Of a stretch of 64,000 bases of DNA, positions 1,807 through 63,473 are shown in pieces. The DNA is taken from positions 15,368,373 through 15,432,372 of the forward strand of contig MU053881.1 in NCBI GenBank assembly GCA_013239625.1, written 5' to 3'. The first letter of the stretch is position 1; the number at the start of each line of letters is the position of its first letter. A model generated the notes under the pieces. That model was given only the letters and a program-made list of their open reading frames with translations. It searched no databases and was not told the origin of the DNA. This DNA comes from Lama guanicoe (Eukaryota). The position numbers were made by a program, and so were the translations under genes.

Positions 1807-3680
<1,874 letters not shown>

Positions 3681-10019: not shown

Positions 10020-10040
10020 GTCAGCACTGGGGACAGCTCC
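10020..10040 (+). promoter_or_regulatory. Canonical RE1/NRSE (REST) motif
   Basis: GTCAGCACT-GG-GGACAGCTCC versus consensus TTCAGCACC-NN-GGACAGCGCC. Confidence 0.7.
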
Positions 10041-10955: not shown

Positions 10956-11161
10956 GCAGTCCTGAAGTCAGTGGATTCTGGCTTGTCTCCCATGAGCCCC
11001 CTTGGAAGTTGCGTCATTCAGAGATGCTTCTCAGGGACCCCATTGCTGCCACCACTGTCAAGCCGCCTTGGGACCACTGGAGAGGTGGAGCCCAGTGCCT
11101 GTGTGGTGTTCACCATCGAGGCTCGAGGGACAGAGCAAAGCCACGACCTGGCCCCAGGCAG
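10956..11161 (+). CDS. PDE4C: PDE4C alternative N-terminus A, second coding exon (AVLKSVDSGLSPMSPLGSCVIQRCFSGTPLLPPLSSRLG...)
   Basis: Acceptor tgcccag|10956 in phase 0; donor AG|gtgaga at 11162 in phase 2, which joins common exon 22904 in frame (S-FDLENG). The LPPLSxR motif is shared with PDE4B1/PDE4D7-type N-termini. Predicted isoform 727 aa. Confidence 0.75.
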
Positions 11162-11229
11162 GTGAGAAAACAGATGGGCATGAAGGGGGCCAGTCCCAGG
11201 AGAGGGAGAGTACCTCTTCTACCTTTCTT

Positions 11230-11870: not shown

Positions 11871-12757
11871 ACTGGTGGATACCAGCAGAGGGTAACAGAG
11901 GGTAGGGACTGGTGGACAGCTCCTGGTCTTTGATCCTTCACTTGTGACATCCCTTTTCATCCTTGCGGCAGTGCCAAGAGGTGGGAACACTATCATTACC
12001 CCAATTTTCCAGAGTAGAAAACAGGTTTGGGGAGGCGAAGTGACAGCTAGCCACTGGCAGTACTCATATCCCCCATCACTTGACCAACATGTCTCCCACT
12101 GTCAGCTTTGGAGGGCAGGGACTGAGCCATGAGTGTAATGGGCAGAGAGGAATCACTTGTTTTGCATCACTCAGCAAGACGTGATAGTATTGGGGCTTGA
12201 GTTCAATTTGTCTGACTTGCTGGCCCAAGTATTTTCCATTTCCAACCTGGGGACACAACTCATGTAGAGGATAGACAATCTGCATGGGAATTATCCTTGA
12301 GATATACTTCTGAGCCCTCTGAAAATATTATGGCTCTTTCTGCCCCAAATCTGCTGCAGCAAGTGGCCCCAAATACCTCCCTGCCCCAGCCCACACCCAC
12401 GCACCCAGCCCTGCTCTTGTCCATGTCTACTTCTGTTAACTGTGGTGGAAAATGTTCTCTCCCTCCATTTGCCAGGAAATTACCCCTGAGATTAGAATGC
12501 CTGGTGGGCAGGGCCTTGAGCTTCTAGAACTAGGGAAGGGAGGGGCAGGCCTGGGAGTTGAGAGCAGGAATTGTGGCTGTGAGGTGGGGCCCAGGGCGTC
12601 ACAAGGCAAATGATATCCTGCTATTTCTTCTGAGGGTCTGGGCGTCTGTGTGGCTATAAAACAGTGTCCCTCTCTACCCACCCCCACTGTCGGCAACCCT
12701 GACAGGCTTCTGTGCGCCTACCCCAGGCATGGGAGGGCCCTACCACAGCCCTCCCCT

Positions 12758-12777
12758 TTTCTCGAACTTTCTCGAAT
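12758..12777. promoter_or_regulatory. Perfect four-pentamer heat-shock element
   Basis: tTTCtcGAActTTCtcGAAt = nTTCnnGAAnnTTCnnGAAn. Confidence 0.6.
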
Positions 12778-12970
12778 CCCTGCCCTGCGTGGATGGGAGT
12801 TTTAAGATTCCAAAGAGACCCCATCTGGAGCTGAACCGCTGAGCCTATCTTCCTGAGCAGAGAGACTGCTATCTGTGCCTACTTCTGAAGACCAAAGCCC
12901 TGGATTCTGCTTCCAGACTCCTCTTTGCTACAGTCACGGGGGAAGGTTAAGGACTCATCCCTACTCAGCT

Positions 12971-13524
12971 TTCAGCACCTCCTGGGTGGACGGCGCACTG
13001 GTCTGGGGTCACTCCTGAACCCTTGTCTGTCTCTGGGCCGGCCTTCAGCACCGACAAGTCACGGACAGCTCCTTTCTGTCTCAACCACCCGGAGCCCCTG
13101 AATTTACTACGCCCTTCCCTTTCGTCATCAGGAGTAGAGTCAGTGCCTTGGTTCTGGGGGTCTCCCGAGCCCCTTTCCCTGCTCTCCATTCGGCAGCAAC
13201 CAGGAGGACAGTTTCTGTCTTCACTCCATGTCCATGTCTTGACCCTATTTCGTTCAGCACTGGAAGGGACGGCAGACCATTCTTGGCGCTGGGGGTCGCC
13301 CCAGCCCCTGTCTCCAACGCCCGCGCCAAAGTTCTTTCCCTGCTATCTATCCTTCAGCTCCATCTCAGCACGGACAGCTCCTCAGGGTCAGCCCCACCTT
13401 GAGCACCTATTTCTACCTTCTCCCGCCTCAGCACCTCCGGCGCGGACAGCTCCTCGCTGTCGCCTCCAACCCCGGCTCTGGCCCCATCCTGGCTCAGACA
13501 CTCCTTGCTACCGAGGACCGCTCC
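12971..13524 (+). promoter_or_regulatory. Cluster of split (non-canonical spacer) RE1/REST motifs upstream of PDE4C exon B
   Basis: Left half TCAGCAC[C/T] and right half GGAC[A/G]GC recur in the same orientation five to seven times; details under findings. Confidence 0.65.
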
Positions 13525-13561
13525 CACTCCCTGCTCTCTGCCTGCTCCACGGCTCTGGCGC

Positions 13562-13803
13562 ATGGAGACTCCGGGAGTCCAAGAAGGGGTAGAGGCATCC
13601 CGCGAGCTGAACCGCGCTCGCAGCCGCCAAGGCATAGTCAAGCCCCCAAAGCACCTGTGGCGGCAGCCCCAGCGCCCCATCTGTATCCAGCAGCGCTTCC
13701 ACTCAGACCCGGACAAATCTGTGGGTTGCAGGGAGCGGGACCAGAGCCCACGGCCCGGGCTGGAGAAGTCGCAGCGCTCCTGGCCCACCTCCTTCCACAG
13801 GCG
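13562..13803 (+). CDS. PDE4C: PDE4C alternative first exon B (PDE4C1 type, METPGVQEG...KHLWRQPQRPICIQQRFHSD...)
   Basis: HLWRQPxxPIxIQQR motif of PDE4C1/PDE4A4-type N-termini. Donor CG|gtaggt at 13804, phase 2, in frame with 22904. CpG-rich. Predicted isoform 725 aa. Confidence 0.9.
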
Positions 13804-16800
13804 GTAGGTGGGCGTGGGCAGGGTCCTCCCGCGGTGTGTGGGAGGGGCGCGCAGGGCCTGGTGGGAGTTGGGGAGGGTCCCTGCTTCTCCAGGGGCGGAG
13901 GTCTCTACTGCTTGGCTGAAGCCGGAGCTTTGGAGGAAAAGCTGTTTTTATGCAGGGTGGAGCTGGGGGTGGGTAGTTTGCTTGCTTGTGGGGCTGTGTG
14001 ACCGGGTGTGCCCAGGTGCGGTTGCATCCGAATGTGTGTGTGAGTCTGAGCAATTGCGACCCCGTGTGTGCTCTAATCTATTGTATGAGTCCACAGCTGT
14101 GTCTCTGTGGGTGATGGGATGTGTGTATACCAGTTATGTACCTGCTTGCATATTTCATCTTGTGGTGCCCATGTGGGTGGCTGGAAGTGACTGTCCTTGC
14201 TCTGTCCCAGCTGGTTGCCCAAGGGTCCTCCAGACCCTGGAGTGTCCTTGGATGTTTGTGGAATTTGTGACCACTGAGAGCATTTGAGGGGAGCTTGGGT
14301 TGGGTAAATGAGAAGGCCAGGGCCGGCTGTCTGCTCTGCTGTGGGGAGGAGCCTCCTCTGTAGCCTCTCCTGCCACACACACACACACACGTGTCCCCTG
14401 CTGCCAGAAGGAAAGCCTCTTGGGGACCCTGAGCACAGAATGTTTCTTCCACATAAGAAAGAATGGGATGGAAAAGAGGGGAGTAGTGATGGGAGATGGG
14501 CTGCTCCTCTTTCATATAAACTGGGGGAGTGGGGCAGAATAAGACAAAGACAGAAGAAAAACACAGAGAAACAGGGGCATTTGAGGGACCAGAGGGGCCT
14601 CAGTGTGGCAGAGGAGCAAGGTCCAGGAGTCCCAGGCCCTCCTTGGATGGGAGGGGGAGCTAAATCAAACCAGACTTAGAACCCAGGGTTTGAGGGCAGG
14701 CTGGGTGAACTTGGGTGAATCACCTTCCTCTCCGTATTTTTTTTCCTGCCTCGGTCCATGGACCTACCAGGGCCTCTGGCTTCTTACTTAATCAACAAGC
14801 CTAGCTTAATGCCCCCAGCCTGGCCCTCCAGCAGCCCTGTTGGTGCCCAGGACAGATGGGCCCCACAGCCCAGAAGGGTTGGAGTTTTCCCAGGTGACCC
14901 AGCAGGCCCCTTGCCCCCACCCTTCAGTTCCTCCTGCCATCTCTCCTGGTGACTCATGATTTTCCATCTTCAAGAAAGAACAAACAGAGACTGGGTTTGG
15001 GCCCATCTTGGGGGGAGAGCCAAGTGGCTCTGGAAGGCAGGAGTGGTGGATTGTGTCCCTGTGAGCATGTCTGTGTGTATGTGTCCTGTCTGTGCATATA
15101 TATGCAGATGTGGTGGGAGAGGCTCAGCTCTTGGGGAAACTAGGCTCGAGGCCAATGTACTAAACACTCCCAAGCAACTGGTGGTGCTTCCCTGAGCCTC
15201 AGTGTCATCAGTGAGATGCAAACACAAACTCATACTTTCTGCATTTTGTTGTGAACTTTCTGTGCCAGAGCATAATCACCAGCTATGGCTGTCTTCCCCA
15301 CCACCCTGGGCAGATCACGTGGGTCTGGGAGGGTCTGAGCATCTTGTTCAGCAAGCACTTATTTAACACCTATTGTGTGCCAGGCCCTGTGCTGGGGACA
15401 CAGCCCAAGGGCAAGTAGGTGCTCATAGAGTAATGGTGGAGACAGAATCATACCAGCTGGAGACAACACAGAATGATCTGTGCTGTGATGGCAAGAGATC
15501 AGTGTGCCATGGAGCCCAGAGGAGGTTCTGAGCCAGCATCTGGGGATAGAGGGTGAGGAAGGACTGCTTGGAAGAGATGATATTTAAGCTTAGCCTGAAG
15601 GATGAAGTCAGCCGGGAGGAGTGCAGGGAAGGGTATGCCAAGCAGAAGGAACAAAATGTTCAAAGCCTCAGACTCAAGAGGATCAGGGTGTATGAGGAGC
15701 TGAACACAGATCAATGTAGTTGAATGGTGGAGGGGGAGGCTCTATATTTATTGCAAAAGCATTTATTGAGCATCTACTGAGTGCTGGGCACTGAGGGCAC
15801 AGCTGGAAGCAAGGCAGACCTGGTCATGCCCTTAAGGGGCTGTAGGGTGAGGCAGACATAGATCAAATAATCATGACAGTAAATGTGAAATTGTACCAGT
15901 GAGAGGAGGGTGCTCTAAGGATATTTACTCAGCTGGTCAGGGAGGGCTTCCTGGAGGGGATTATACTCCAGCTGTGAACCAAAAGACAAAGAGTCAGCAG
16001 GGGAAGAGCATTCAGGCAAGGGCATGGGGTGGGATGACCCTGGCTACTTCAAAAAAACAAGGAGTTGGGTAGGGGTGATGAGGCTGGAGCAGAGTGAGCC
16101 AAGAAGAGGGGGATGGGGAGGCAAGCAGGGGTCAGGTCACTCAGGTCCTCCAGAGAGGTGTGGATTCAGAAGTGAGGGCAATGGGGAGCCAAAGGAGGAC
16201 CTGGAGCAGAGAAGGGTGAGATTTGACACATATGAGAATCTTCATCTGGGACTCATCCTCCAGCCTCCTCTCTCTATCAAGATTCTTCACAAGGACTTAG
16301 GCAATACATCTCTCCTCTCCAGATCCCAGTATACTTGTCTGTAAAATGGGCGTAATAGCACCCAACTCCTGTCTCACTGGAGCCACCTGGTAGTGGAGGA
16401 GACAGGTGCTTGCCCGGGGAAGAGAGGCTGAGAAGGGGGGAATTGAGAGATACTGATGTGCTAAGGGCCCTAGAGACTGTTGGGCACCTCCTCAGATCAC
16501 ACAGCATGCAGGGACAAAGTCAGGATGAGACAAAGTCATGTCAACCCCTTCTTTATCCTCTGCTCCTTTCTGGGTGAAGCTTGAGGCCTCCCAGGGTCAG
16601 GCAGGCCAGGCTTTGAATGCTGAGTCTTGACTGTGGCTCAGTTTCTCCATCCAAAAAGCTATTATTAACAATGCATTACTGTTAAAACTGGTTATAAAAT
16701 ATTTAAAGTTGAATCTTTTAATGAAACATTAATATTAAAACTATTGATAAAACATTAATGTCAGTGTAGTGTCTGGGACTGCAGAGGGGATGGAGCCAGT

Positions 16801-19707: not shown

Positions 19708-19853
19708 ATGCAGAGGCCCCCTGCGCCCGCCCCTGCCCCTGGGCCCAGCTCCCCCCGGTGCTCCCCGCGCGGCTCCCCCGGGCTCTTCAGGAAGCTCCTG
19801 GTGAACCAGAGCATCCGCCTGCAGCGGCGCTTCACGGTGGCCCATCCGCTGTG
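19708..19853 (+). CDS. PDE4C: PDE4C alternative first exon C (MQRPPAPAP...SPGLFRKLLVNQSIRLQRRFTVAHPLC)
   Basis: RRFTVAH motif shared with PDE4B3/PDE4D5-type N-termini. Donor TG|gtgagg at 19854, phase 2. CpG island. Predicted isoform 693 aa. Confidence 0.9.
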
Positions 19854-21263
19854 GTGAGGCGAGACAGTGGGCCAAGCAGGGGTCATCGGAACCGTCGGGC
19901 TGGAGGTGGGAAAGGCAGAGTCAGGGACAGCTGGAGCCAGGTTGGGGGTCAGGGTATAAACCCTCTGCTCCTCCGCGCTTTCTCGGTATCTCTCTCCCCC
20001 TGCCCTATCTCTGACTCTTAGAGTTGGTGACTGTCTCTCTTCATCTGTTTCCCTCCACCCTCCGCCTGGATATATGCCCAGGGGACCAGCCGCTGTTCTT
20101 TTCCAGCTGTGTGGCCTGGAGCAGCACGGGCTGAGGCTCACGTCTCCTCCTGACCCTCGTCGACCCAGGGCAGGCAGGTTGAGCCTCTTGGCAGTGGAGG
20201 GGGGAAGGTCACTCCTTCCCTTGGTCTGCCCCCACCATCCGTCCTGGCGCCAGCAACGAGATGGCCTGGTGGCCTCATACTAAGCACTCAGTGTCCGTTG
20301 AGGAAGACGTGGTTTGATGGGGGCCTTCCAGACAGGGTATTTGCGGTGTAAGAGGGCTCCTTGCATATCCCCGGCTGAGAGCTGACTTCTTGGTTGCGTC
20401 CTCCAAGAACTCGTTCCACTTCTCTGGGTTCGAATTCCGGCCCTCAGGAAGCGATTGTAACTTCGTGGGTCTCGAGGGTGAGGCTGGGGTTTGGAGGTGG
20501 GGGCTGGTGGGCGCCGACTGGGTCTGGTTCCTTGCTCTTGATTCGTACCGCTTTCGTACACACTTGATAATTTGGCACCTGGCGGCTCAGAGACTAAAGG
20601 TCCCTTCTCCAAGGTCACACAGACAGTGACAGCTGGTGGAGGGAGGGAGGCAGCCGTGACTGTGGTCCCTGATGGCACTATTTCAGGCTGGGAGTGGGTT
20701 CCAGTGTCCAGGAGAGGGCCCTCTGGGTACCAGACGCCTGTGAAGAGGGGTCGCTGCCGAGGGCTTGGGAGTGAGCACAGGTACGTGGAGGACGTCGAGG
20801 GAGTGGGGCTGGAGGAGGGCGGGTCTCTCCGAGGCTCCCGTGCCTCAGTTTACCTGTCTAACAGACGGACATAAGCGCCGTTCCCACAGTCCGAGCGACC
20901 TCCTCCTGGCCACCCGCGTCATGGAACCACCGCCTGACCCGGCCGATCTAGGCTAAGTTTAGAGCAGAAAGAAAAACAGCTTCCCCCGGGGCGAGAAAAC
21001 CTTGGCCCAGACCTTAACTCTCCGCTCTCGCTACTTGGATTCGAACCCAGCACCCTGTGGCCTCTCCCAGCCTCAGTTTCCCTATTTATCCATAGGTGAG
21101 CCTTCCCAGAACCTTTGAGGAGGCAAGGGAGGGATAGGAAGTAGTCACCCGCAAGCCTCCCACTCCGATCACTGGTTTAGAGTATTCACCTCGGTTAGCC
21201 TGCCCCCAAGAGCGTCTCTCCACCAGTCACGCGCCCACTCCAAGGCTTGAGAAGCACTAAGAA

Positions 21264-21288
21264 GCCCCGCCCCTCACGGTGACGTCAC
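21264..21288. promoter_or_regulatory. GC box plus full palindromic CRE in a PDE4C intron (candidate internal promoter)
   Basis: GCCCCGCCCC followed by GTGACGTCAC at 21279-21288, at the 5' edge of a CpG island. Confidence 0.65.
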
Positions 21289-21340
21289 TAAGCGGGAGCT
21301 GGGACTCGTTGGCTGTAGGGGCTTCTCTAGGAGCCACCGG

Positions 21341-21560
21341 GCCTGAACAGACCGAGAGCCGCCGGACATACCCGAATATTCCGGAACTCACCCGAGTGAG
21401 GCCGGACTAAGTCGAATGTGCCCGATCCGGCCCGAGGACCATCCCCCCAACTCCGCGACTTGCTCGAAAACCTAGCGCGGCCAGACATAGCCGAACACAC
21501 CCGAACGCATCCGAACCTACCCGAGCGCAGTTGGATGTAGCCGAATCTTGCTGAACTCAC
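21341..21560. repeat. Degenerate 10-bp-period tandem array (CCGAA/CCGGA + 5 variable nt)
   Basis: Two phased blocks, 21351-21440 and 21481-21560, e.g. ccgaacacac ccgaacgcat ccgaacctac ccgagcgcag. Confidence 0.7.
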
Positions 21561-22903
21561 CGATCGAACTCAGCCGGACGAGGTCCAACCCTGTGTGATC
21601 AGACCCAACTTAGTCAAACCCAGGCGTACTTGATCGAGCCGGAAAGAATCCTGCCGAATTCCCCACCTCCACCCCGGGTCTGAGCCGAGTCCCTTGTTCG
21701 GAGTCTTCCGGCAGGCGCCGATCCCCGCCAGTGGACCCGGGTAGGGTGACCTGACTGGGAACCAAGTGGACATTGGCCCTTGACCAGGAGTCTCGCGACT
21801 TGGGGCGGCCCCTGGGGTCTTCCTGTCCCTGCCTCTCCTGCCTGCTCCCTTCTCAAAAGCCTGTGACCCATCTGCAGCCTCTCTCCCTGGTCATTAACTC
21901 CCTCCTCCCACGCTCCCTGCCACTGTTTCTCTGACCTCTGACTAGAAGGTCCCCCTAGAGAACTAGGGTGGGTCTTCTTTCCCCATCAGGGTGTGGCTGG
22001 AGGGAGATTCGGGGCTGAGAGATGGGAGGAGGGATTGGGGATTGTCTGGAACAGAGGGCGTTGTAGGGATGACGATGCTCTGGGCAGAGGGCACACCCTG
22101 TGCAAAGGCTCGGAGGTGGAAGAGAACAGGCAGAGCTTTTGGGCCGAAAATAAAGCAGACGATTTGGGGAGCCAAGGCTAGGGCTAAGCGAGACGGGGAT
22201 GTGGTTGACGATTTTGGGGCGGGGCCATACCGGCCAAGGGTTGGGGCTTGGAGCTGAGGGAGTGGACAGGTGGTCCAGGGCGGAGCCAAAGCTGCCTGGG
22301 GGCGTGGCCTCTTCTGGCTGTGGGGAGCCTTGGAGTGTGACGGATCTAGGCAGGACCCAAGTCCCCTCCAGAGAGGAAAGCCCAGGAAGTCATTTCCAGT
22401 CCCAATGAACTTACTGTGCAACCTAGACCTCAGTTTATTCCTACACTTGATCGTAGCCAAAAGGCCGAGAAGCGATCAGTTTATTCCTTAGTAAATGGGC
22501 ACCCAGTTGTCCTCCTCAGGTGCCTGGTTGTAACCCCCTAAAAGCCCCCTCAGGGGTGAAGTCTACCACGCCCACACTAGAAACAGGGTGGTTAATGTCC
22601 ACAGAAATGCTGAGACCTACCCATGGTCACACAGCCACTTGGGGACAGATCTGAATCGCACGTCCTTGAGTCTAGCTTAGCCCCAGCGGAAGAGGCTCTG
22701 AGATACAGAGGCGAGATGGAGGCATGAGGGGCGTGGCATCCCAGACAGGGGGTGCCACTGTGGGACAGGTAGACAAGCTCGAGGCTACTCCTGCCCAGCC
22801 CACTGCATGGCCCCAGGGAGGATATGACAGAACGGGTATGGGCCATGGCTCATCACGCGCATGCCAGGACCCTCGTCTCTGACTATGCCTTCTTTGCCTT
22901 CAG

Positions 22904-30091
<7,188 letters not shown>

Positions 30092-34399: not shown

Positions 34400-34955
34400 G
34401 GGAACGGTAACGCCCCCAGAAGACCCAGGCTCTGCCAAGGCCTCAACCTCTCGGCCCTTCAATCTTTCGGGAACCACCATTGGACAGGGGGAGGGAGTGA
34501 CAAGCTTTGATTGGCTACTCAGCCCATCGCTCGAGCGTTTAAGCCAGTGAGAAGGCACCGCTCAGCCCCGCCTCCCTAACGCTGGAGAGAGGCGGAGCCG
34601 GCAGGCGATTCCACCCCTCCTGCACCGCTTCCGCTTGTTACTGGATGCGCTCGCTGGGCCCCGCCCAATTCTCGCGTCAATCTGCGTGGGAGCCCCGCCC
34701 CTCACAGCTCCGCGGACTACCAGGGCCTTAGCTCCGTGCGTGGCCCCGCCCCAGAATGGCGTCACGGTCGTATCTGCATGTGAGGCCCCGCCCCTATCTT
34801 TGCAGGACGTCACCGCGGACTGCAGGGGCCTGAGCTGCTGCTGCCGCCGCCTCCGCTGCCGCGCAGCCCCACATCGGCGCACTGGGGGCCAGATCACCGC
34901 CGCTGCCAAAAAAGTCGCCGTCGCTAGGGTCGTCACCTCACCAGTGCAGGGCAAG
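34400..34955 (+). promoter_or_regulatory. RAB3A: RAB3A CpG-island promoter and non-coding exon 1 (ends 34955)
   Basis: Several CCCCGCCC GC boxes, CRE-like GGACGTCA at 34805-34812, donor AAG|gtgagc at 34956. The exact TSS cannot be determined. Confidence 0.75.
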
Positions 34956-35204
34956 GTGAGCTCCCGGGCGGCCCGGTACGTTTCTGCTCGGAGCACCTAC
35001 ATAACCTTCATTTGACTGATGGTCTGGCTGGGGTCGGGGACGAGGTTAGCGAGCTTTAAATGGGGGAAAGGAAGCGGCGGTCGCGGGCCTGGGGAAGGGT
35101 AGGGTCCTATCTCCCACTACCTGCTGGATCCTCACCCCCACCCCAACCCCCAACCCCTCGCTCTGCGGCGTTGGGGGAGGGGAGGCAAATGCCTTGCGGG
35201 AAGC

Positions 35205-35735
35205 TGTGCGCGCGGGAGGCTCCGTGCGTGCGCGTGCGCGTGGTGTGCACACGCGTGTGCGCGCCCGCCTGTGTATTCTTGCTTGTGTACCAGAGTATGT
35301 TCGTGTGACCCCTTAGGGGTCCCTACCCAAGTTTGTGCGTGCTACATGCGTGTGGAGGGAGACGCGTGGACTGTGCGTGTGCGTGCACAGCCATGTGCAT
35401 ACATGCACCGAGATGGGAGCTCGTGTAGGTGACGTGTACTCGGCTGCATGGGTGGAGGACGCAGTGCTGATGAGTGGGTTTGCACATTTGTATATGCATG
35501 TCGGTGTGCAGACAGCTGTCTGCCTCTCTACCCTGTGCACTGTGTTCGATGTTCATATATGCACAAGTGTGTATGGATGAGTGTGTGCCCTGCTGTGTGC
35601 ACGTGAGCATGTGCACGCCCTGCTCTTATCACGTGATGAACCTGTTTCAGCCTGATCTCTCCCAGCCTGGGAGTCTGGGAGGAGGACTGCGACACGCGTC
35701 CCTGCAGTACCATACACGCGTGTGCACGTGCGCCC
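35205..35735. repeat. Degenerate alternating purine-pyrimidine (GT/GC/AT) tract in RAB3A intron 1
   Basis: cgtgcgtgcgcgtgcgcgtg, gtgtgcacacgcgtgtgcgcgc, catacacgcgtgtgcacgtgcgc. Confidence 0.7.

Positions 35736-36101: not shown

Positions 36102-39358
<3,257 letters not shown>

Positions 39359-54224: not shown

Positions 54225-63473
<9,249 letters not shown>

Follow-up and report, generated by a model that had tools for sequence, protein, structure and literature searches.

Several arrangements of binding sites for the repressor REST have been described that resemble the element reported here. In CELSR3, two tandem non-canonical NRSEs with 11-bp gaps lie 9 bp apart, and EMSA showed that each of them binds one REST molecule (PMC8096226). 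Canonical RE1s are also known to occur in head-to-tail clusters, such as those of SNAP25 and L1CAM, with 27 close pairs and groups of up to five, for which the authors proposed an origin by tandem duplication (PMC1557810). Moreover, RE1s with atypical spacing have been described (PMC9903721, PMC2573930), including that of PCDH-alpha HS5-1, but as single elements. According to the model of PMC8096226, fingers 7-8 of REST read the left half-site and fingers 3-5 the right one, with finger 6 spanning gaps of 7-9 bp, while gaps of 3-6 bp do not occur among REST ChIP-nexus sites. As for activity, silencing in MPRA was seen for 8- and 9-bp spacers only, and none was reported with 10-nt or 5-nt spacers (PMC9903721).

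Here, we describe an array of up to eight split RE1 units upstream of a PDE4C exon in a 64,000-nt window of camelid DNA, the window being the whole stretch that was analysed. Like CELSR3, the array consists of left-gap-right units that all share one orientation and follow one another at the 5' end of a gene, with one REST molecule predicted for each; unlike the two EMSA-shown units of CELSR3 with their 11-bp gaps, its units were read from sequence and have a period of 64-100 nt and gaps of 5-10 nt. All units run head to tail, as in the SNAP25 and L1CAM clusters, and the related linkers found here support the tandem-duplication origin that was proposed for those clusters. However, the SNAP25 and L1CAM sites are matrix-scored canonical 21-mers, whereas the array possesses no intact unit with a 2-nt spacer, so that a scan of the type used in PMC1557810 would miss it. 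The seventh unit resembles the atypically spaced single RE1s, having perfect halves and an 8-nt spacer of the silencing class, whereas the two conserved 10-nt units of the array exceed the 8-9 nt of that class. RE1 clusters in tandem and, at CELSR3, a split pair in tandem are thus already known, and what is new is a larger, all-split example. In a literature search for PDE4C and REST, whose reach included few subscription papers, no description of the array was found.

Identification of the Split RE1 Array

Half-sites were scored over the range 12941-13560, with spacers of 0-12 nt, against the RE1 consensus halves YTCAGCACC (left) and GGACAGYDCC (right). The original prediction had placed seven split RE1 strings on the + strand at 12971-13524, and each of them is present at its claimed coordinates and strand (7/7). 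Another degenerate unit, in register with the others and absent from that list, was recognized as unit 3, and the start-to-start distances across the eight units are 73, 77, 68, 64, 100, 74, and 77 nt (Table 1).

Table 1. Features of the PDE4C locus; positions are those of the window, and mismatches are to the RE1 consensus given above.
Feature	Coordinates	Strand	Description	Mismatches
Canonical RE1	10020..10040	+	2-nt spacer; 1 mismatch in 20-nt pattern; sequence match	
Unit 1	12971..12997	+	8-nt spacer between a perfect left half and a right half with two mismatches	2
Unit 2	13044..13072	+	both halves perfect, 10-nt spacer	0
Unit 3	13121..13147	+	degenerate, 8-nt spacer	
Unit 4	13189..13215	+	degenerate, 8-nt spacer	3
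Unit 5	13253..13276	+	5-nt spacer between a good left and a weak right half	4
Unit 6	13353..13381	+	10-nt spacer between a left half with one mismatch and a perfect right half	1
Unit 7	13427..13453	+	both halves perfect, 8-nt spacer	0
Unit 8	13504..13524	+	imperfect right half alone; left half not credible	
PDE4C long-form first coding exon	13562..13803	+	ATG 13562, donor GT 13804; homology	
Upstream human PDE4C age CpG	13647-48	+	CA in this camelid	
Downstream human PDE4C age CpG	13661-62	+	CG in this camelid	
Second long-form PDE4C first exon	19708..19853	+	homology	
Rab3-family gene, first coding exon	36102..36314	+	homology	

The + strand of 12941-13560 contains 4, 5, and 6 split pairs at three stringencies, whereas dinucleotide shuffles (5,000 per stringency) yielded at most 1, 2, and 4 pairs, with 0/5,000 reaching the observed count, and 201 other 620-nt tiles of the window held at most 1, 1, and 2 pairs at the same stringencies. 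No split pair was found on the minus strand of this range, which leaves five left-gap-right pairs on + and none on -, where a tandem non-canonical NRSE calls for at least two in one orientation. The comparison with shuffled sequence that had been proposed as a check therefore came out as enrichment (5 pairs vs. a maximum of 2 in 5,000 shuffles). The split-RE1 array is real; selection, however, does not follow from the shuffle test, because one founding unit can give many same-strand copies without it. A right half at 11914 has no left partner and was treated as a chance match.

The last of the predicted motifs did not hold up as a split pair. The left half at 13504 stayed unpaired at every stringency tried and has four mismatches by inspection, leaving a lone imperfect right half, and this unit is not recognisable by eye in the human oligo described below.

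REST Occupancy of the Human Orthologue

REST occupancy in vivo was found for the human orthologue alone. Table S2 of PMC9903721 lists at least two orthologous 200-nt oligos, REST_chr19:18344408-18344608_nm and REST_chr19:18344057-18344257_nm, which by the methods of that study are the centres of ENCODE REST peaks without a canonical motif in at least one of GM12878, HepG2, K562, and SK-N-SH. Aligned by eye, the reverse complements of both match units 1-3 and 6-7 and thereby cover four of the seven originally predicted motifs, so the REST ChIP signal sought at the orthologous region is indeed there in human ENCODE data. On the strength of these human-orthologue peaks, REST binding of the array is well supported, and the element had already been present, anonymously, in public ChIP data.

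The spacers of the four covered motifs are 8, 10, 10, and 8 nt in human, the same as in the camelid (4/4, by eye), and indels are present in all three linkers compared. Identity to human, also by eye, is 69/76 nt for half-sites, 28/36 for spacers, and 102/139 for linkers; halves differ from linkers at p = 0.002 (Fisher), or at p = 0.08 if unit 3 is included (halves 79/95).

Conservation and Quality of Individual Units

Other mammals were compared through four database ORFs that read through orthologous DNA (P0005, P0015, P0027, and P0028) and a tree-shrew model, P0020, that covers unit 7; these comparisons are back-inferences from protein translations, not DNA alignments. A coding function of the array's open frames was rejected, as the frames shift between species, and the four ORFs therefore serve as read-outs of orthologous DNA alone. 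Motif codons were counted against the rest in the two longest ORFs, P0005 and P0015. They were no better conserved than the rest in P0005 (34/45 vs. 94/126, p = 1.0) and not significantly better in P0015 (23/27 vs. 53/76, p = 0.13). Several of the differences, in units 3-6, are camelid departures from the consensus, and these lower the pairwise identity. The expectation that half-sites are better conserved than their flanks is thus borne out against human but not in these two ORFs. As for mouse, the PDE4C exon was reported not to be intact (PMC2929239), and the six supplements of a mouse REST study that were searched by term hold no Pde4c, Rab3a, or Gm3336 entry (PMC2573930).

Among the seven originally predicted motifs, three have 8-nt spacers, and one of these, unit 7, is both intact and conserved. 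Strong halves together with an 8- or 9-nt spacer are present in unit 7, partly present in unit 1, whose right half is not conserved, and absent from units 2, 5, 6, and 8. The unit 7 region (13428-13468) equals human at 41/41 nt by eye, of which exact text search confirmed an 18-nt part, and its 8-nt spacer is in frame in all five database proteins covering it. By the spacer rules above, unit 7 is the best candidate silencer of the array. The left half (9/9) and spacer length of unit 1 are the same in human, while its right half agrees at 7/10 positions and also differs in P0005; since this half is not alike in any of the three species compared, unit 1 is doubtful as a silencer. The 10-nt spacer of unit 2 is found in human (by eye) and, in frame, in P0005, and one of the two human oligos is centred on the end of its right half. 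Unit 6 likewise has a 10-nt spacer in human and in three of the four ORFs, with 9 nt inferred in P0028, and its right half is kept in all four ORF translations; the right halves of both units 6 and 7 are unaltered at the amino-acid level in the ORFs. Unit 3 is nearer to the consensus in human, where its spacer is 7 nt by eye, and, going by the translations, in P0005 and P0028. The right-half codons of unit 4 are kept in 4/4 ORFs and its left half is eroded in 3/4. Unit 5 is likely a half-site only, because 3-6 nt gaps are absent from the REST ChIP-nexus sites of PMC8096226.

At unit 7, a short inverted repeat of the right-half core comes after that half (GACAGC...GCTGTC, 13444-13461, +) and is intact, and weaker copies of this kind lie at 13063-13080 and 13372-13389. 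From comparison with human and the ORFs, units 2 and 6 seem to have had such an inverted copy ancestrally, too.

Origin of the Array

It had been stated that the sequence between the motifs is not repeated, so that motifs rather than a tandem unit seemed to have been retained, and this is contradicted by the linkers. With the motifs removed, the seven linkers align with one another above shuffles (mean score 17.9 vs. 14.8 +/- 0.7; 0/2,000), and their relatedness (z 4.65) exceeds that of all 103 real-DNA control tiles (maximum 3.8). Linkers 3 and 5 have 25/30 nt in common and account for much of the signal, which is equalled by 47/2,000 shuffles when linker 5 is left out and by 3/2,000 when linker 3 is left out. 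The related linkers point to tandem duplication rather than to retention of the motifs alone, and the array is likely an old, decayed head-to-tail duplication of a ~75-nt unit, with the degenerate unit 3 as an eighth copy; the duplication is likely older than the camelid-primate split. Head-to-tail orientation and signs of tandem duplication, the marks of the canonical clusters, are thus both present.

A recent tandem repeat was ruled out, as TRF called none over 12971-13524. A higher-order A/B dimer (linkers 1, 3, and 5 vs. 2, 4, 6, and 7) is visible to the eye, yet this split ranks only 5th of 35 and was rejected. RNA structure was rejected as well, since the folding of the array does not surpass that of shuffled sequence (z 0.59; 16/20 shuffles equally good). 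RE1s can also be borne on transposons, as in the LINE2 family, but inspection of 12971-13524 by eye revealed nothing transposon-like, and an Rfam search of the window gave no family over the array and two tRNA-like matches, both elsewhere. The tRNA-derived repeats elsewhere in the window presumably belong to a camelid SINE.

Gene Context

The array ends 38 nt before the ATG of the PDE4C exon at 13562, and unit 7 lies 108 nt from it. The ORF of this exon has 25 PDE4C matches among 32 candidates, of which the best (98%) is a Camelus ferus protein and the other 24 are at 59-84%, and the remaining PDE4C exons map from 19771 to 30088. We take the exon to be of the PDE4C1 type. The array had been placed directly upstream of a PDE4C1-type first exon, which is right as regards the first coding exon of a long form, the exon being only putatively the first one transcribed. 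A promoter at this exon is likewise putative, because both oligos were retained in the library of PMC9903721, from which loci lying up to 5 kb upstream of an annotated start had been removed, and the PDE4C age region was reported not to lie in a promoter (PMC12176646). Split RE1 pairs are absent from the + strand between 13453 and 39155 and from the - strand below 47535, and hence from the vicinity of the other long-form exon at 19708..19853, which agrees with the predicted isoform-specific element.

A canonical RE1 is also present, 3 kb upstream of the array, and is the sole match to the canonical 21-mer with a 2-nt spacer in the 64 kb; shuffles produced such a match in 0/100 cases at <=1 mismatch and in 45/100 at <=3 mismatches. 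The prediction of a REST silencer built almost entirely from non-canonical sites did not take note of this site. Further downstream lies a Rab3-family gene, presumably RAB3A by synteny, with a CpG island (34501-35500) at its start and no canonical RE1 at <=3 mismatches nearby.

Some other observations were made around PDE4C. An exon-like piece with a GT donor (11055-11165, +) and a single-pass membrane-protein-like exon (3378-3599, +) both match the N-terminus of P0020, the tree-shrew model, where they are connected with unit 7 and PDE4C; if that gene model is followed, they are possible read-through or leader exons. In a PDE4C intron, a U2 snRNA 5' fragment (22442-22476, -; Rfam E 3.9e-06, below the gathering score) is flanked on both sides by a 12-nt direct repeat and is likely a retroposed pseudogene. 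A decayed ~10-nt repeat rich in CCGAA occupies 21340-21700 inside an intronic CpG island of PDE4C, within which TRF reports 21491-21529 only. Among 24 listed sequencing runs, 20 contain the stretch or part of it; six are listed as RNA (one being a guess), with shares of 0.13-0.50, and give no evidence of expression.

Relation to the PDE4C Age-Methylation Marker

The human PDE4C age CpGs were placed by eye from the probes and primer of PMC4633697 Table 1 and the guide RNAs of PMC12176646; the primer lies at 13583-13595 and one guide RNA at 13554-13568. The array had been suggested to coincide with the age-methylated region, but the cg17861230 probes map into the coding exon adjacent to it, at a distance of 208 nt from unit 7 and of 137 nt from 13524, on the downstream side. 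The marker shares a CpG-richer stretch with the end of the array, the CpG observed/expected ratio being 0.6-0.68 over 13301-13800. Since the upstream age CpG is CA in this camelid, the human assay at 13647-13648 would not transfer.

According to previous work, REST sites are enriched in age-hypermethylated regions genome-wide (PMC4334892). The likeness to the present locus is a REST-bound element beside an age-hypermethylated CpG; that study, however, concerns genome-wide enrichment and its text does not name PDE4C, whereas a single locus is considered here. For the PDE4C age region itself, the published local correlate is CTCF (PMC7315536), and REST is not mentioned in the parts of PMC12176646 consulted on this region. 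With a CTCF consensus string, which is a weak test, none of the 49 window matches at <=2 mismatches lies in 12000-14300. A perfect match to that consensus occurs in a CpG-rich stretch at 59220-59233 (-). A causal link from the REST array to PDE4C age methylation is speculation.

Proposed Mechanism and Alternative Explanations

We consider it reasonably probable that the array is a REST-dependent silencer of the PDE4C form using the 13562 exon, for which we infer both repression and target. Following the model of PMC8096226, each unit would hold one REST molecule, the left half being contacted by fingers 7-8 and the right half by fingers 3-5, while finger 6 is flipped out across the gap. Unit 7, with its intact halves and 8-nt spacer, would be the main silencer, whereas units 2 and 6, with 10 nt, might be weaker binders that raise occupancy, with uncertain effect, and units 3, 4, 5, and 8 would represent decaying copies or half-sites. 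As the human orthologue is REST-bound, the array likely silences this PDE4C form outside neurons, and the predicted output is repression in cells with high REST that is lifted in neurons.

REST might instead bind the array with another gene as its main target, either the Rab3-family gene, which lies ~21 kb downstream, or a transcript with a start site further upstream; the adjacency to PDE4C would then be incidental. Two of three validated RE1 knockouts acted on distal genes, a promoter at the 13562 exon is putative, and the Rab3-family gene has its CpG-island start in the window with no canonical RE1 of its own. The short distances from the array and from unit 7, its best-conserved unit, to the PDE4C ATG nevertheless make this unlikely, as does the finding that sites near the start repress most strongly, the genes most derepressed by dominant-negative REST having sites within about 1 kb of it; the lack of a Rab3a entry in the searched supplements of PMC2573930 is a weak argument in the same direction. 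We judge it similarly improbable that REST occupies weak split or half sites to no measurable repressive effect, the binding being a relic of duplication with one useful unit at most. Only one of the eight units is an intact and conserved 8-nt site, half-site occupancy was reported to be about five-fold below that of full sites, only 10% of the no-motif REST peaks were strongly repressive in MPRA, leaving 90% that were not (PMC9903721), and the conservation of motif vs. flank is flat in P0005. Such a relic, however, would not be expected to keep its spacer lengths, the 41/41 identity to human around unit 7, or the unaltered right halves of units 6 and 7 in the ORFs.

Each left half also closes a pyrimidine tract with CAG, so the units could have been kept as 3' splice acceptors of upstream non-coding exons, with the REST match partly a by-product. 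The CAGs at units 3, 4, 6, and 7 have 13-14/16 pyrimidines, vs. 4.8% of 2,476 YAG sites in the window, and in P0020 the exon-like 11055-11159, which has a GT donor behind it, is joined to unit 7. Yet this reading leaves the right halves, the fixed spacers, and the REST peaks unexplained, the P0020 junction is a prediction, and the tract score is inflated because the + strand of the array is 63% pyrimidine; as the main explanation we find it very unlikely, although, going by the tracts and the gene model, the acceptor for an upstream leader exon may lie in the array as well. Least probable by far is an old tandem repeat in neutral decay, functionless and resembling RE1 by chance. It would account for the related linkers and for the many same-strand copies of a single founding unit, but the REST peaks on the human orthologue have already largely refuted it, and the halves are better conserved than the linkers against human.

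The silencer reading can be extended, tentatively and with low expectation, to a joint one. A split RE1 unit would have been amplified eight-fold before the placental radiation into a graded REST landing pad, in which 10-nt units, inactive by themselves in reporter assays, were kept because they are useful in an array; REST and its co-repressors would drive the age methylation of the PDE4C exon, and the left halves may double as splice acceptors of a PDE4C1 leader. If this were true, a cause encoded in the sequence and open to editing would underlie one of the first human epigenetic clock sites.

Significance

With the array, a specific, conserved sequence that could be edited is identified next to a human age-methylation marker in wide use; a nearby CTCF site is the only correlate offered for this marker in the literature examined. 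It also offers a natural test of the 8-9 nt spacer rule, because two 10-nt units have kept their length from camelid to human, and it illustrates that scans for the canonical motif can miss a whole multi-site REST element. Finally, the array suggests a route by which one PDE4C isoform may be confined to low-REST cells.
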